DNA of 64,000 nucleotides, taken from IMG/VR virus record IMGVR_UViG_3300034685_000168, positions 1 through 64,000 of that record. One strand, given 5' to 3'. A program made the position numbers and the translations under genes. Of this stretch, positions 5,290 through 59,095 are shown piece by piece. The DNA is from a virus. Below the pieces are notes generated by a model. It was not told where the DNA came from. It did no database searches and saw only the letters and a program-made list of their open reading frames with translations. How positions within the stretch are numbered: the first letter of the stretch is position 1; each line of letters starts with the position of its first letter.

Positions 5290-5315
5290 GAAATATATAA
5301 ATAAAAATAGATTGA
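5290..5315 (-). promoter_or_regulatory. Putative early promoter for the macrodomain operon
   Basis: TCA-ATCTATTTTT-ATTTATATATTTC on the minus strand. Confidence 0.75.
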
Positions 5316-5824: not shown

Positions 5825-5850
5825 GGAATATATAAATAATTATGTAATGA
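5825..5850 (-). promoter_or_regulatory. Putative early promoter
   Basis: TCA-TTACATAATT-ATTTATATATTCC. Confidence 0.75.
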
Positions 5851-10672: not shown

Positions 10673-10698
10673 GTAATATATAACTCAATATAGATTGA
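10673..10698 (-). promoter_or_regulatory. Putative early promoter
   Basis: TCA-ATCTATATTG-AGTTATATATTAC; contains TATATTAC, the described phiKZ early core. Confidence 0.8.
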
Positions 10699-10743: not shown

Positions 10744-12192
10744 TTATTTTATATTGTTTTCTATACACCATGCTTTGTCAACTGGATCATCCATTAACCA
10801 ACTTTCCAATTGAGCAATTTCTTCATTACATGGTTTAATTTGATTGGATATTTTTCCATATTTCATGTCAGAAAACCCATAACATGGATGAAGTACTTTA
10901 AACTTTTCTTGTTCATCTCTTTCTTTGATTAATAAACCAAATAACTCATCTCCATCAAAATCTATGTTTGCATATTTTAATATTCTAGGAGATATATTAA
11001 TAGATTTATCATGTATATCTGTTTTAATTTCTGTTATACCTAATCCCATAATACTCAAAAACTGTAACACAGGATTTCTACCGAATATAGAAAATATACA
11101 ATGTTTATTTGATGTTAATGTTCTATGAGGAGATTCTTTAATTAAGATATGAAATATTTCATCTATTAACTCATTATAAGTTAATATACTATTTCTATAT
11201 AATTTCATAGCTTCATTAGTTTTATAACCATACCTTTTTGTTAAGATATTAATTATTTCTAATTTAAAAGAAGCAACTCCGATTTGCCAAGGAATTAATA
11301 ACTCATCACCATCGTGTTGATCTATTATTGGTGTAACAACTCCACGATATGTGAAGTGTAATCTAGATCCTAATATATTTTTTCTATTTAATCCTTTCTT
11401 TCCGTGAACTTTATTATAGAATACTTGGTATGAATATTCATAATATTTCTGATATATATTATTTATTTGTCTATCTATTTGAGATTGTTTAACAACATTG
11501 GTATTAATTTTAAATACTGTAATTGCTAATTCATTTATTGTATTGACAATATATTTAGATGTTGGATCAACTAACTTTAATTTTCCAACTACTGTCATTA
11601 TGTGTAGATTTCTATTTAGTATTGGTAATCTTTTTACCCATAAATTATTACCAAACAATTTTAAGAAATCCGATATTGTTTTTCTCTTTCTTTTTGGTTT
11701 ATATATATTTTCAAAAAAGTTTATTATGTAATCAAAATTTTCATAAAAATATTTGTAACCTTGACTCAATACTTCTGCTAAATCTTCTGGTAGATCGGCG
11801 TCTACATCCAATATCATATCTAGAATAGATTTTTTATTTACTCTACCTAACCAATTTTTTAAGATAGAATAAGCTCTTGGATGTAATAGAGGATATCCTA
11901 ATGCATCTTCTACATTGATCCATGTAGAAAAAGATAAATCATCACAAAATGCGGAAGTTGGTTTAGTTCCACATTTAGGACAAATTATATAATCAGAATA
12001 ATAATTACCATGTAAATATCCACATTTACAATGATTAATAAAATCTAATTCAGATTTATAATCACCAAATAACTCTTCAATCACATCTGTTATTTTAGCA
12101 GTATTAGAGCCAAGATCTAAATATTTCACAATATCAATAGGATTATTTTCTTTTTCATATTGATCATTAAATGGAAATATTTCTTTTTTCAT
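10744..12192 (-). CDS. rpoC: Non-virion RNA polymerase beta' N-terminal/catalytic subunit (phiKZ gp55-like)
   Basis: Zn finger CKCG...CPKCG, GKKGLNRKNILGSRLHFTYRGVV, GRNP and catalytic NIDFDGD; truncated relative to bacterial beta'. Confidence 0.92.
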   Translation of the reverse strand: MKKEIFPFNDQYEKENNPIDIVKYLDLGSNTAKITDVIEELFGDYKSELDFINHCKCGYLHGNYYSDYIICPKCGTKPTSAFCDDLSFSTWINVEDALGYPLLHPRAYSILKNWLGRVNKKSILDMILDVDADLPEDLAEVLSQGYKYFYENFDYIINFFENIYKPKRKRKTISDFLKLFGNNLWVKRLPILNRNLHIMTVVGKLKLVDPTSKYIVNTINELAITVFKINTNVVKQSQIDRQINNIYQKYYEYSYQVFYNKVHGKKGLNRKNILGSRLHFTYRGVVTPIIDQHDGDELLIPWQIGVASFKLEIINILTKRYGYKTNEAMKLYRNSILTYNELIDEIFHILIKESPHRTLTSNKHCIFSIFGRNPVLQFLSIMGLGITEIKTDIHDKSINISPRILKYANIDFDGDELFGLLIKERDEQEKFKVLHPCYGFSDMKYGKISNQIKPCNEEIAQLESWLMDDPVDKAWCIENNIK

Positions 12193-12212: not shown

Positions 12213-12248
12213 AAAAATAGAGTGGAAAATTAATCCCACTCTATTTTT
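12213..12248 (-). terminator. Terminator after the chimallin-like gene
   Basis: AAAAATAGAGTGG / CCACTCTATTTTT stem with T-run. Confidence 0.75.
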
Positions 12249-12257
12249 AATTATTTA

Positions 12258-13808
12258 TTAATAGTTAAATCCATATGGGTTGAATCCATTACCACCATAT
12301 GTATTTGCGTTCGTTGGTCCACCATAATTAAATCCACCCATGCCAAAATATCCACCATTACCAAGCATATTGGCATTGATGGCTGAATTCATTTGGTCTT
12401 CAGGATTACAATCAACAACAATATAAGGTAGAACCCAGTCTACTAGTGTCATGATAAATTTTTCATCCAAAAAGAGTTGCATATCTTCATAACAAATATC
12501 AAACTGGTCTCTGTAACCTCTTTCATTAATACAATGAACACGGTCCATTGGATCATTCCATCTGGTTAGTAGACCATCTTCCAACCCAGCATCTTCTGGG
12601 AATCTGTTTTTAAAGAATAGGTAATCGAGTCTTTCTACTGGGAAAGGTTCTGCACCAGTAGTATGAACGTTACCTGTATAGTATTTTAATATCTTTAGTT
12701 TCGCTATATTCACCTTATCTGCTTGGGAAGAATCAACTCCCAAGAATTTATACATAAATTTTACAACTTTAGAGTGATCATAAACGAAATCAGATAGACC
12801 TGGAATAGTCTGTCTACCATTGGATACCATAAGAGCAATTTCAGGTGATGTGAAAAAGCTATTAATGATATGAAAAGCTTCATTTTGATCAGTAAGTTGT
12901 GGTTTATTAATGAATGCACCAAGATTGAAGCTATCTTCTGCTCCTCTTGTAAGATATGGACGCATCCACATTGTACTTTCGATAAATTCTTTTACTATCA
13001 TAGGGAGAACTATAGCAAGTAGTTCTCTATCGGGCATTACTGCACCAATATAAGAAATGTTAATAATTGGAACTATTACTTTTTCATGTGGTTGATAAAT
13101 ATGACTTTTCTTAAGAAAGTCAGTATAAGCACCAACTACAATAAGTTCTTCTTTATTTTCAAAACTGTTATTATCATTATTATTATCTGTAACAGACAAT
13201 ACGAAACCATAATCAATTCTTGGTTTTACAGCATGAACACATGTTTGATCAACCATAGACATTACATTGTAATAATTAGTGTCTATGTAGAATTTCTTCT
13301 CTGGGTTTGCGTTACCATGACCACCAACATCTGCAAGTGTAAGTTTATTGGTATCAGTTGCATATACAAAAGCATTAATAATGTGTCTGCATGCAACATC
13401 AACAAGATGATAATCTTCCTCATTAATAACAAGAAGATCAAACAAAGATGCTTTCGGGCTATACATACTACGCATCTTATGGGTAATTTCTTTCATTCTT
13501 GTAGTTGGTGGTGGATTGTTAATATTTCTACCTCTTTTCATAATAAGAGCAAAAACATTATCTTTAATACCTTTAAGAAATACAACTTCACCATATCCAT
13601 GAAGAAACATGGACTTAACATCATCTGGGTTGATAAGATTTTTATCAACCAGTGCATCGATGATGGTATTTCTGTATTCAAGTCCTGCAGGAGACAGACT
13701 TGATCCTTTTGTATAAGAATTAAGCTTTTTATCAAGATTACTCATTCTTATTGGAGATGTTTCAGAACCTTCATTAAACTTTTTTTTCTGTACATTGATT
13801 TCGACCAT
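12258..13808 (-). CDS. chmA: Chimallin (nuclear shell protein ChmA/PhuN)-like, divergent
   Basis: Syntenic with phiKZ gp54 (just upstream of and co-oriented with nvRNAP beta'); early promoter; codon style like the capsid gene. Ordered motifs PRID, VGAYTDF, WMRPY..FNLGA, RLDYL resemble recalled ChmA blocks; Gly/aromatic C-terminal tail. Confidence 0.7.
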   Translation of the reverse strand: MVEINVQKKKFNEGSETSPIRMSNLDKKLNSYTKGSSLSPAGLEYRNTIIDALVDKNLINPDDVKSMFLHGYGEVVFLKGIKDNVFALIMKRGRNINNPPPTTRMKEITHKMRSMYSPKASLFDLLVINEEDYHLVDVACRHIINAFVYATDTNKLTLADVGGHGNANPEKKFYIDTNYYNVMSMVDQTCVHAVKPRIDYGFVLSVTDNNNDNNSFENKEELIVVGAYTDFLKKSHIYQPHEKVIVPIINISYIGAVMPDRELLAIVLPMIVKEFIESTMWMRPYLTRGAEDSFNLGAFINKPQLTDQNEAFHIINSFFTSPEIALMVSNGRQTIPGLSDFVYDHSKVVKFMYKFLGVDSSQADKVNIAKLKILKYYTGNVHTTGAEPFPVERLDYLFFKNRFPEDAGLEDGLLTRWNDPMDRVHCINERGYRDQFDICYEDMQLFLDEKFIMTLVDWVLPYIVVDCNPEDQMNSAINANMLGNGGYFGMGGFNYGGPTNANTYGGNGFNPYGFNY

Positions 13809-13890
13809 TTCTTAAAATCCTTTCTTAAATAAATAAATTAAACATTTTAATAATTATTAAAAAATTCAATCAATTGAATCTTTCATTATA

Positions 13891-13916
13891 GAAATATATA
13901 AATGAAAATTGATTGA
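13891..13916 (-). promoter_or_regulatory. Putative early promoter of the chimallin-like gene
   Basis: TCA-ATCAATTTTC-ATTTATATATTTC, consensus match. Confidence 0.8.
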
Positions 13917-14040
13917 AAAAATAGTAATCCAGATATCTGGATTAACTACTTATTAAATGATTATAGTATGTATTTTTTTATGATTATTTTTACTATAATC
14001 CTTATTTTATAACTAAAGTAAATTAACCAATAAAATATTT

Positions 14041-15159
14041 ATGGAGTTAAAATATATTACTATGATTAAATTACCTAATTACAATACTAATGTAAAAAAA
14101 ACTATAAGAACTTGGGATAGATTAATAAATAATGTTAATAATAAACTTAATATTTTTTTAGGTTCAAGATTTGAAAAAGATCATTTAAAAAGATCTACTG
14201 CTTTTCAAAAAATAAATTATTTATTATCACATGTTACTTATGAAAATATTTTAGAAGATAAATCTATAAGTTCTATTTATTTTGATTATATATTAAATAG
14301 ATATGATATATTTTGTGAAATACTTTCTTCACCTTACGATATACAACCTCAAGAAAATATTTTTCTTTATAATAAAGATGGAAAAGATACAATAGAATAT
14401 TTAATTCCAACATCAAGGAAAAATCCACTTAGAAATCTACCTATTAATAATCCAGATTACAATACTTGGAAAAAAATAGAATGTATAAAAATAATAACAC
14501 ATGATTCTAAAAAATTACCAGACCAATATAATTTTAATTTAACATTTAAAAATAATGGTCCCTCATATGGAATTGTAGTTGTTGATATAGTTGTATTAAT
14601 AATTAAATATATCACTAAATTAAAATCTATTAAAGAAGAAAATTATAATATTAATAAAGTTAGAGAAAACTTTATACATACCGAATTCTATAACTTAATA
14701 GATGATAGTTTAACTATATATTTAAAAAATATGATAATAGATGTTATAAATGATGAAATACCTGAATCATTACCAATGTTATATATTACCAACTATTCAG
14801 ATCTAGTGGATGAATTAGAGGATAAAATATTAGATGTAAAAATAGGTGCATTAAAACCAGAAGATTTCTTAAATATACCTTGGATAAATAATAAATCTAT
14901 TATTCATTTATTTAATGAATTGGAATATAATTGGTATATGGAAGATATAAGACAAAATATTGGAATAAAATTTCTTATGTATAGTGATTTATTTTACATT
15001 ATGAAATCTATATGTGAATTTTATCCTTCTTCAGGATTTACCGAATTATTTTTACAAAGATATGAAAGATTCACTAAGCAATGTTCAGAACAAAGAATAT
15101 GGAATAGATCTAATATAAGTGAATTTTCCGATATTATCCGTACTCTAATAAATAGTTAA
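14041..15159 (+). CDS. Conserved jumbo phage hypothetical protein (position and size like phiKZ gp52)
   Basis: 372-aa ORF divergent from the chmA-like gene; identity inferred from synteny only. Confidence 0.5.
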   Translation: MELKYITMIKLPNYNTNVKKTIRTWDRLINNVNNKLNIFLGSRFEKDHLKRSTAFQKINYLLSHVTYENILEDKSISSIYFDYILNRYDIFCEILSSPYDIQPQENIFLYNKDGKDTIEYLIPTSRKNPLRNLPINNPDYNTWKKIECIKIITHDSKKLPDQYNFNLTFKNNGPSYGIVVVDIVVLIIKYITKLKSIKEENYNINKVRENFIHTEFYNLIDDSLTIYLKNMIIDVINDEIPESLPMLYITNYSDLVDELEDKILDVKIGALKPEDFLNIPWINNKSIIHLFNELEYNWYMEDIRQNIGIKFLMYSDLFYIMKSICEFYPSSGFTELFLQRYERFTKQCSEQRIWNRSNISEFSDIIRTLINS

Positions 15160-15891: not shown

Positions 15892-15917
15892 GATATATAT
15901 AAATAAAAATAAATTGA
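15892..15917 (-). promoter_or_regulatory. Putative early promoter
   Basis: TCA-ATTTATTTTT-ATTTATATATATC. Confidence 0.75.
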
Positions 15918-34526: not shown

Positions 34527-34552
34527 GTAATATATAAATAAAAATGATGTGA
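34527..34552 (-). promoter_or_regulatory. Putative early promoter
   Basis: TCA-CATCATTTTT-ATTTATATATTAC. Confidence 0.8.
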
Positions 34553-36490: not shown

Positions 36491-36516
36491 GAAATATATA
36501 AATGAAAATTAATTGA
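36491..36516 (-). promoter_or_regulatory. Putative early promoter
   Basis: TCA-ATTAATTTTC-ATTTATATATTTC. Confidence 0.8.
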
Positions 36517-40790: not shown

Positions 40791-40816
40791 GAAATATATA
40801 AATGATTTTTATATGA
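40791..40816 (-). promoter_or_regulatory. Putative early promoter
   Basis: TCA-TATAAAAATC-ATTTATATATTTC. Confidence 0.75.
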
Positions 40817-56659: not shown

Positions 56660-58354
56660 ATGCCTACTTATTACCACCCAGGTTATCTTATCAATACCAT
56701 TGATACTGGATTATATGTACCTGTTGAAGAAATCGTAAGATCTCTTCATAGACCATGTGTTTTTATGTTTACTCAATCTGGACCTTATAACAAACCAGTT
56801 TGGGTTAATAACATCACCGAAGCTAAACGTATATTTGGTGAAGAAACTTTCAATAAGTTTAATTCTGAATATTTTAGTAAAGAATCTAGATTAGCTGAAA
56901 CCTTTTTCCCTCATCATGGTTGTTATATAGTACGACTATTACCAACAGATGATTTTCAGGTTAGTGGAGAACAACCAGAAAGTGCTAGAGTAATTCTTGC
57001 ACTAGATATAACTGAATCAAAATTAACTAATTACCAACGTAATTTAGATGGATCATTTGTTCTAGATGGTGCTGGTAATAAAGTCGTTGATCCTGATACA
57101 CCTTCTGTAGAAGGATTCAAATTCTTTTTTCATTATAAATATGTGTCTGATGCAGATTGGACTACCAAAACTACACAAGAACTATTAACTAAATCTACAC
57201 CTACTCCTGGTACTACATCATATAACATTATGTTAATTAATGATATTTACCCAGGTAAAGATGGTAATAGATTTGGATTTAATTTCTATAGAGATATTGA
57301 AGCTTATGACTCTAATTTCATAGATGAAATAAAAGCTATGATGTACACATTTAAACCTAAGAAAAAGGTTTATAATAATGTACAAGTTACTCCTATGTTA
57401 GATAAATATAATAGTGTTTTTAATAATTTCAGTTTAAAAGAAAATACTATTGATCCCAATACTAATATAGAACTAAGTATTGATAAAGTACTTGATAATA
57501 AATATGATAATTTTAATTATGAGTTTGTAGTTAATACTGAATTAATAAAAGAAATAGGTAATCTATATTTAGCTAAAAGACAAGTTATAGATGGAACAGA
57601 AACACCTGGGTATATCGATGGTGGAATACTTGTAGATGAGCCGTTTATGATAGATTTTATTAATTTCAAAGATTTTAATGGTAATCCACTTATTGGTACT
57701 GAAAAAGAAGCTATAGAAGATCAACCTGGACTTAACCCCATTACTAAAGATACTATCATTTATCTTGATGGTGGTAAAGATGGTAATAAAACAGATACTA
57801 CTAAAGAATTTCTTATTAGTGAATTCTGCAAAGCTACATTATTCCCTGATATACTAAATAAAGCTAAATACCCTATTACTCATATTTATGATATGGGTTA
57901 TACAATAGATACTAAAAAGAAAATGCTTGATTTTATGGCAGTGCGTGATGACGTAAGTGTTACAACAGTAACTCAGGTATTTAGTATTGTTGCCAAAATG
58001 GCAATGCCAGTTATTGTTGATGTTGATAGTGCTGCTAATATTACTGATGTTAAATTAGGAATCGCCGCACCCGAATTTATTAATGGCGATGGAACTGTTA
58101 CAAGTATTTACTTAGAATTAGAAAATACAGATACATCTACATTATTATACGATGGTCCAATAGAGTTTAGTACATTAATACCAACTAAAGAACTAGAACA
58201 AGCATCTGGTGATTATTGGATTCCTATGATAGATCTTACATTAAACCCTGGTATTGGTACTGGAAATTTCCGTGCTAGAATTAAATTTACTGATAACAAC
58301 GGTGTTGAATCTGATTTCTCTCTATGGAAATCTTTTAGTGTTGTTGGTGTTTAG
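56660..58354 (+). CDS. Contractile tail sheath, N-terminal part, with appended Ig/FN3-like domain
   Basis: GP...P......RIFGEETF, YLDGGKDG, YPITHIYDMGY..DTKK....AVRDD match the phiKZ gp29 sheath; the last ~122 aa are unrelated and beta-rich. Confidence 0.85.
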   Translation: MPTYYHPGYLINTIDTGLYVPVEEIVRSLHRPCVFMFTQSGPYNKPVWVNNITEAKRIFGEETFNKFNSEYFSKESRLAETFFPHHGCYIVRLLPTDDFQVSGEQPESARVILALDITESKLTNYQRNLDGSFVLDGAGNKVVDPDTPSVEGFKFFFHYKYVSDADWTTKTTQELLTKSTPTPGTTSYNIMLINDIYPGKDGNRFGFNFYRDIEAYDSNFIDEIKAMMYTFKPKKKVYNNVQVTPMLDKYNSVFNNFSLKENTIDPNTNIELSIDKVLDNKYDNFNYEFVVNTELIKEIGNLYLAKRQVIDGTETPGYIDGGILVDEPFMIDFINFKDFNGNPLIGTEKEAIEDQPGLNPITKDTIIYLDGGKDGNKTDTTKEFLISEFCKATLFPDILNKAKYPITHIYDMGYTIDTKKKMLDFMAVRDDVSVTTVTQVFSIVAKMAMPVIVDVDSAANITDVKLGIAAPEFINGDGTVTSIYLELENTDTSTLLYDGPIEFSTLIPTKELEQASGDYWIPMIDLTLNPGIGTGNFRARIKFTDNNGVESDFSLWKSFSVVGV

Positions 58355-58384: not shown

Positions 58385-59095
58385 ATGACTGTTAAAATAA
58401 ATAACGCATATGAAGATGAGTCTGTTGCAATATCTCTAGCTGCTTATGGCAGACTCATTCCTGAATCAGTAGAAAAAGGAACTGAATCTTGTAGATTTAG
58501 TATTTTTGTTCAATGTGGAAAAACCCATGATAATATTATGATGCCAGCTGGACTTCGGATAGCACAAATGCGTGCAGAAAAGATGGGAACCCAATCTCTT
58601 AGAGGAGATTTTGGTGGAAGACCTGATAGTGAATGTCATCTGTTTAAAGAACTTAGTTATATTCCAGCAGGTGATGAAAGCAAAGCAAGATTGTGGGCCG
58701 CAGGTGCTAATTATCTTAGTTCTTGTAATGAAAAAGATGTTTATTATGAAGGACTTAAATCAGGGTATGCACACCAAAGTTCTGCATTAAGTGATTTATA
58801 TTTTTGTGATACATTATGTTATGTTAAACAAGCGGTTGGAGTATCATACTCTATGTTTGCTGGTGTTAGATGGCCTTTTAATATACTTAAAGATAAAATA
58901 ACTAAAGACCTTACTACTAGATTAAATACTCTATTCAATGGTAAATATGTATTTTCTGTTGATGTTTATCAGACTGTAGAAGAACAGAAAAAAGGTTATG
59001 AAACACACGTAGCTATTAATATAGAATCTCCTAATCAAAATCTTAGGTGGAATGTTGATATAAACTGCTCAAGAGAAGGTTATGTTGCAGAATAA
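58385..59095 (+). CDS. Contractile tail sheath, C-terminal part
   Basis: EDES.A..L....RLIPES..KGT.SCR..I..QCG continues the sheath sequence where the upstream gene departs; own AAGGAG RBS. Confidence 0.85.
   Translation: MTVKINNAYEDESVAISLAAYGRLIPESVEKGTESCRFSIFVQCGKTHDNIMMPAGLRIAQMRAEKMGTQSLRGDFGGRPDSECHLFKELSYIPAGDESKARLWAAGANYLSSCNEKDVYYEGLKSGYAHQSSALSDLYFCDTLCYVKQAVGVSYSMFAGVRWPFNILKDKITKDLTTRLNTLFNGKYVFSVDVYQTVEEQKKGYETHVAINIESPNQNLRWNVDINCSREGYVAE

Follow-up and report, generated by a model that had tools for sequence, protein, structure and literature searches.

The window analysed here is a stretch of 64,000 nucleotides of viral DNA (positions 1 to 64,000 of the IMG/VR virus record IMGVR_UViG_3300034685_000168). 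Its minus strand carries, at 12258-13808 (ATG start, stop codon included), the coding sequence of a 516-amino-acid (aa) chimallin-like protein, P0001, which a first-pass annotation, made from the sequence alone, had read as a divergent chimallin (ChmA, PhuN), the protein of the phage nuclear shell. Chimallin is the defining protein of nucleus-forming phages, which resist DNA-targeting CRISPR and restriction, and which attract study as an instance in which a nucleus arose by convergent evolution. The source record is linear, 107,638 bp long and of 23.9% GC; the window is part of it. CheckV estimates its completeness at 45%, and every absence in the contig reported below is thus an absence in about 45% of the genome. 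Downstream of the gene, 10744-12192 (minus strand) encodes the N-terminal piece of the β′ subunit of a non-virion RNA polymerase (nvRNAP) of the phiKZ gp55 type (phrog_2987, E 4.6e-78; BLASTP with phiKZ gp55, E 4e-31). On the other side, a gene for a 372-aa protein is transcribed divergently (14041-15159, plus strand).

Upstream of the coding sequence we found the promoter-like motif TCA-N12-TTATATAT, then TTTCTATAATG (13894-13916, minus strand), the presumed promoter of the gene; its 5′ edge, 13916, is also the end of the interval 12258-13916 singled out by the first-pass annotation. The leader (13809-13893, minus strand), as read from the sequence, has AAAGGA as ribosome-binding site at 13818-13823, with 9 nt separating it from the ATG. 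Between this site and the promoter motif, the leader also contains an inverted repeat, ATTCAAT-TG-ATTGAAT (minus strand; 13855-13888). At the other end is an intrinsic terminator (12213-12248, minus strand; stem of 15 bp, then a T run; -21 kcal/mol, z -6.9), which falls just outside the same interval. The GC content of the gene, 33.3%, is the fourth highest among the 73 open reading frames (ORFs) of at least 150 aa, placing it beside the major head and sheath/tube genes, and its GC content at third codon positions (GC3), 21.7%, is the maximum of the contig (median 10.9%). The terminator and the capsid-like codon style that had been ascribed to this gene were thus both found. An antisense ORF of 205 aa within the gene (13086-13703, plus strand) is most likely spurious.

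The motif TCA-N12-TTATATAT proved to be a recurring element, in agreement with the earlier claim that the gene has a consensus promoter. There are nine copies in the window versus 1.18 expected, a number that none of 100 shuffles reached. All nine are on the minus strand (1479-1501, 5293-5315, 5828-5850, 10676-10698, 13894-13916, 15895-15917, 34530-34552, 36494-36516 and 40794-40816), and those compared with the ORF table are intergenic. The remainder of the contig has about five more copies (at 70.7, 78.5, 83.6 and 84.1 kb), and the motif with its flanks gives a longer consensus common to about 14 intergenic sites of the contig. A scan for the sigma-70 consensus returned 9 sites versus 13.3 in shuffles; since these sites are not above the shuffled level, host-type promoters are not indicated. 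TCA-N12-TTATATAT is probably the phage's own promoter class, and the shell-gene promoter would belong to an 'early' class by analogy with phiKZ-like phages. Promoter motif and composition fit high expression and no more than that. We also noted a perfect 20-bp palindrome, TAATCCAGATATCTGGATTA (13925-13944), between the two divergent genes; it lies immediately upstream of the promoter motif and has a terminator-like score on both strands.

Direct searches with P0001 did not reveal its identity. No Pfam family matched at E≤1, and the only PHROGs match was weak and unrelated (phrog_19545, E 0.025). PDB sequence searches with P0001, with alignment A1 and with a profile of 133 sequences of the family described below found no chimallin, P0001 itself giving only noise. 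No relative was obtained either when P0001 and the family members P0050 and P0004 were compared by tblastn with 50,697 phage records, P0001 again giving only noise. BLASTP of P0001 against phiKZ gp54 was not significant; in the best segment (E 0.35), the Gly/Tyr-rich C-terminal tails of the two proteins are aligned with each other. The ESM Atlas model of P0001 was poor (predicted local distance difference test, pLDDT, 0.33), and its neighbours were uninformative.

A word-indexed search of 5.8 billion proteins returned only near-identical copies of P0001 and one relative of 32% identity. Starting from P0001 and this relative, we built a family profile and searched 1.84 billion cluster representatives with HMMER, which gave 354 proteins at E≤1e-3, of which 250 also reached E≤1e-10; most are 505-580 aa long. 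Two of the members are encoded on contigs of 221 kb and 295 kb, the size of jumbo phages, one of them deposited in a metagenome-assembled genome labelled Alphaproteobacteria. Scans for related loci in viral contigs (three scans), in genome contigs and in a first metagenome set found none; scanning of a second metagenome set revealed two short loci with family members, L012 and L013, on contigs of 36% and 28% GC. Their members score 455-464 bits on the family hidden Markov model (HMM) but about 3 bits on one built from cultured chimallins. When 70 family members were scanned, none matched any Pfam or PHROG family. P0001 is a member of a large, metagenome-only branch of chimallins that is unseen by standard family models.

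Assignment of this branch to the chimallins came from comparison with six cultured chimallins taken from GenBank (phiKZ gp54, 201phi2-1 gp105, Goslar gp189, RAY gp222 and those of RP12 and Eowyn). On an HMM built from these six, the family members score at most 14 bits. As a profile of 70 members, the family aligned with the six by hhalign with 98.4% probability (E 9.1e-15, 276 columns), residues 193-470 of P0001 lying on 251-578 of phiKZ gp54. The first-pass annotation had listed six motifs as mirroring ChmA blocks. All six occur in the translation of P0001 and in the order given (PRID 196-199, VGAYTDF 225-231, VPIINI 246-251, WMRPY 281-285, FNLGA 294-298, RLDYL 393-397), and hhalign indeed pairs motif blocks of P0001 with chimallin blocks: PRID with P-I-R-S-D, VGAYTDF with v-GYvDL, VPIINIS with P-x-VIT, FNLGA with DIGALG, and RLDYL with D-x-L. 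At the level of sequence, homology to the characterised chimallins is detected by profile-profile comparison only, and it is this comparison that we take as decisive.

We then modelled P0001 with AlphaFold2 from the 133-sequence family alignment, without templates and without any cultured chimallin in the alignment. The resulting model has a pLDDT of 87.5 and a predicted template-modelling score (pTM) of 0.86; on average, pLDDT is 55 over residues 1-20 and 43-62 beyond about residue 471, falling below 50 in the stretch 489-516. A model from only two sequences (pLDDT 33) was discarded. A Foldseek search of the PDB with the model gave chimallin/PhuN entries at ranks 1-9 (8igg, 7sqq-7sqv, 8fne; E 4e-15 to 1.5e-12, TM-score about 0.6); rank 10 had an E of 1e-2, and only chimallin entries were below that value. 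These entries comprise 201phi2-1 gp105 (7SQQ-7SQS, 8IGG), Goslar gp189 (7SQT-7SQV) and PhiPA3 PhuN (8FNE). In VIA-align, seven of eight chimallin entries superposed on the model with Z 24.0-26.9 and a root-mean-square deviation (rmsd) of 3.4-3.7 Å over 409-434 residues, the exception being 7sqq_A (440 residues, rmsd 6.5 Å). The best of these superpositions places residues 35-475 of the model on 63-584 of 201phi2-1 gp105 (Z 26.9, rmsd 3.4 Å, 409 residues) and covers both core domains. Identity in the structural alignments with chimallins is 10-14%. The next fold, a GNAT-type fold for the C-domain (residues ~170-450), had a Z of 6.9, and nuclease-like folds aligned to the N-domain (~34-153) with lower Z. 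The model of P0001 has the chimallin two-domain core fold, and the earlier reading of a divergent chimallin was supported both by this search and by the profile-profile comparison.

The model divides P0001 into three parts, all encoded on the minus strand. The two-domain core (aa 35-475; 12384-13706) is predicted to consist of an alpha/beta N-domain (~35-165) and a GNAT-like C-domain (~170-475); the chimallin C-domain is itself GNAT-like, without the acetyltransferase active-site residues (PMC9365700). The N-terminal segment (aa 1-34; 13707-13808) has low pLDDT and a short helix at 24-31 before the core, and is a candidate counterpart of the chimallin N tail and its N-terminal segment (NTS); alignment of the structural core begins at residues 34-39. 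The C-terminal tail (aa 476-516; 12261-12383) is Gly/Asn/Tyr-rich, ends in PYGFNY, and is a candidate counterpart of the two C-terminal segments, CTS1 and CTS2. In 201phi2-1 chimallin the corresponding map is NTS 48-61, N-terminal domain 62-228, C-terminal domain 229-581, CTS1 590-611 and CTS2 622-631 (PMC9365700). Both the family and the cultured chimallins have tails rich in G, N, S and A with aromatic residues at the extreme C-terminus. A dimer prediction for residues 20-516, made with the family alignment, scored 0.01, which speaks neither for nor against dimerisation.

Among predicted structures of viral proteins (BFVD), ranks 1-18 had E 2e-17 to 6e-12, and the named ones are jumbo-phage proteins of 618-691 aa, including those of Eowyn and RP12, whose chimallins are in our six-chimallin reference set. 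Ranks 19-31 are 'endonuclease-like' and 'restriction endonuclease-like' proteins of 420-700 aa from uncultured myoviruses, with alignments of about 430-450 columns (E 1.5e-5 to 1e-2, TM-score about 0.3); their architecture may be distantly related to the two domains of chimallin.

The position of the gene, directly upstream of the nvRNAP β′ gene, had been part of the original argument, and this argument turned out to be stronger than it was first put. In Goslar, RAY, RP12 and Eowyn the shell gene lies between a divergent gene for a protein of about 365 aa and a gp55-type gene. The arrangement is alike in phiKZ, with the small gp53 between gp52 and the shell gene. In 201phi2-1 the shell gene and the gp55-type gene, the two genes checked there, are one small gene apart. 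The divergent gene belongs to phrog_3938 in all three phages scanned (phiKZ gp52, Goslar gp190, RAY gp221). The 372-aa protein encoded divergently from P0001 is a homologue of these proteins. BLASTP with Goslar gp190 and RAY gp221 was unconvincing alone, and as a single sequence the protein reached 62.8% in hhalign; its identity was settled by profile comparison, in which, aligned with its counterparts from L012 and L013 (BLASTP with the L012 neighbour, 6e-11), it matched five cultured gp52-like proteins with 95.5% probability (E 1.4e-8, 292 columns). In L012, too, a gp52-like gene is divergent from the family member. Since the 372-aa neighbour is a gp52 homologue, the three-gene chimallin locus is conserved here, and its gp52-like arm in at least one other locus of the family.

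The contig also encodes other proteins of phiKZ-like phages, namely TerL (33% identity to phiKZ), the major head protein, a split sheath, tube, DNA polymerase, a DnaB-like helicase, topoisomerase II and a gp77-like protein. Besides the gp55 type there are two more RNAP subunit genes (phrog_2962 and phrog_2943); no match to the model of nvRNAP β (phrog_3295) was found in the contig.

We consider it likely, with a probability of roughly 0.8, that P0001 is the major nuclear-shell protein (ChmA), in a compact and extremely divergent form, of an uncultured phiKZ-like jumbo phage with 24% GC. The protein would be made early and abundantly, and protomers would form tetramers and then a flexible square lattice, presumably through docking of the disordered residues 1-34 and of the tail, residues 476-516, onto the cores of adjacent protomers, the part that NTS, CTS1 and CTS2 play in 201phi2-1 and Goslar. 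Such a shell would enclose the replicating phage DNA together with nvRNAP.

Several results, however, weigh against this interpretation. P0001 does not match PF25677 (Chimallin_Phikzvirus) or phrog_4795 (nuclear shell protein) at E≤1, none of the 70 scanned family members matches either at E≤1e-3, and phrog_4795 has no match anywhere in the contig; in control scans all six cultured chimallins matched both phrog_4795 (E 4e-52 or better) and PF25677 (E 5e-25 or better). HMM-to-sequence scores between the family and the cultured chimallins are as low as 3-23 bits. Furthermore, P0001 has Pro390 and Glu392 (12627-12641 encode residues 390-394) at positions where the family (133 aligned sequences) has Asp in 99% and Arg in 92%, and which hhalign places opposite a D-x-R invariant in the six cultured chimallins. 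An Arg is present in P0001 one position after Glu392, and the closest relative, P0003, keeps the Asp and has a Lys. Lastly, models for PhuZ, PicA/Imp1 (gp69), gp2, gp67 and gp68 had no match in the contig, which, in a 45% fragment, does not argue that the genes are absent from the genome. Because P0001 shares the fold and the locus of chimallin but fails the curated models, we regard it as a divergent variant and not as a regular chimallin.

The lack of the Asp and Arg common to the family and the chimallins, the failure of the curated models and the estimate that the contig is 45% of the genome would also fit the possibility that P0001 is a chimallin-fold paralogue or a minor shell component, with the true major shell protein encoded in the unsampled ~55%. 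We regard this as unlikely, although it is the best of the alternatives, because the gene of P0001 occupies the canonical chmA slot with gp52-like and gp55-like flanks and has its own promoter, its own terminator and the highest GC3 of the contig, and because both terminal tails are kept in the protein. In addition, all 354 clusters are of this size and none of the 70 members matches the canonical models, which fits a lineage that has this form alone.

Another possibility, which we consider more improbable still, is that the chimallin fold was kept in a lineage without a closed nucleus, where it would form a partial scaffold or some other assembly. That neither PhuZ nor an import factor was matched in the half of the genome sampled is in line with such a scenario, as are the shorter core (by about 80 residues) and N-terminal segment (by about 28) relative to 201phi2-1. 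These absences, however, rest on a fragment of the genome, and the nvRNAP genes, which go with nuclear transcription, are present. PhuZ is not known to be required for shell formation as such.

Finally, P0001 is very unlikely to be a GNAT acetyltransferase-type enzyme or toxin that carries a nuclease-like domain and has no role in compartment formation. Its alignments to GNAT/AtaT-type folds (C-domain) and nuclease-like folds (N-domain), with Z 4.8-6.9, are weaker than the chimallin matches by a factor of four, and each is limited to a single domain. Solved chimallins resemble GNAT too (PMC9365700), and, for all the 'endonuclease-like' phage proteins in the BFVD results, no GNAT or nuclease Pfam family matched P0001 at E≤1. 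Membership in GNAT is not supported.

As a probable shell protein, P0001 compares with known systems as follows. With chimallin it shares the two-domain core, which superposes over about 410 residues (Z 24-27), sequence homology of the C-domain at the profile-profile level, a short N-terminal segment and a probably flexible, Gly-rich C-terminal tail with terminal aromatics, and its gene, with its own promoter, terminator and high-expression composition, lies between gp52-like and gp55-like genes. The C-terminal tail is similar in length to that of 201phi2-1 chimallin (41 versus 50 residues), while core and N-terminal segment are reduced to the extent given above; with 516 aa versus 626-711 aa, the protein is indeed about 100 aa shorter than characterised chimallins, as had been stated. 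Unlike the cultured chimallins, P0001 is missed by PF25677, phrog_4795, PDB sequence search and tblastn, and the Asp and Arg of the D-x-R-x-x-D-x-L block are replaced. GNAT-fold toxins that acetylate tRNA (AtaT, TacT) and N-terminal acetyltransferases share the topology of its C-domain (Z 5-7), but this similarity is weak, is limited to one domain and comes with no Pfam GNAT match, and the role that we propose for P0001 is structural.

Divergent metagenomic chimallins have already been reported by structure-based surveys, and the fold, the locus and the likely function are already known; the gain here is incremental. A survey with HMMER and RoseTTAFold described 2,001 chimallin-encoding genomes, with 27-59% GC in the final set of 406 genomes (PMC12625630); the phage of P0001, at 24% GC, is below this range. 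With scores of at most 14 bits on the cultured-chimallin HMM, the family would probably be missed by an HMMER screen. A structure-clustering preprint placed 650 chimallins in one cluster, 631 of them beside an RNAP beta gene (bioRxiv 10.1101/2025.02.27.640493), and this cluster might include the P0001 family. Like the members of such metagenomic collections, P0001 is a chimallin-fold protein of an uncultured jumbo phage, encoded beside an RNAP subunit gene. PBS1, which the first-pass annotation had named among low-GC relatives reported to form no nucleus, encodes multisubunit RNAPs and no chimallin according to PSI-BLAST work (PMC10299810), in agreement with that remark.

As our results show, Pfam, PHROGs, BLAST and HMMER seeded with cultured chimallins fail to see a homologue of the shell protein that is present in a large group of uncultured jumbo phages. 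Since screens seeded with cultured sequences miss this group, the counts of nucleus-forming phages that they yield are probably too low. The compact protomer could, moreover, help to define the minimal shell-forming unit. A broader and more tentative proposal, which we find somewhat doubtful, is that the 354-cluster family is a deep, unannotated branch of chimallins in AT-rich jumbo phages (24-36% GC at three loci) that have hosts outside the studied Gammaproteobacteria and build the nucleus from a smaller protomer, its core reduced by about 80 residues. If this were true, sequence-based surveys would greatly understate how widespread the nuclear-shell strategy is, and its minimal building block would be smaller than they indicate.

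Several other features of the contig were observed. A phage ClpP-like gene looked too divergent for host prediction. The two pieces of the split sheath gene, 56660-58354 and 58385-59095, both match phiKZ gp29 (E 1e-10 and 9e-8). Beyond the window, regions 72580-78406 and 94426-96174 of the contig hold two topoisomerase II subunit genes (phrog_551, phrog_543) and a GroEL-like chaperonin gene (phrog_5725). At 1295-1734, on the minus strand, lies a cluster of three tRNAs, Asn-GTT, Gln-TTG and Leu-TAA.

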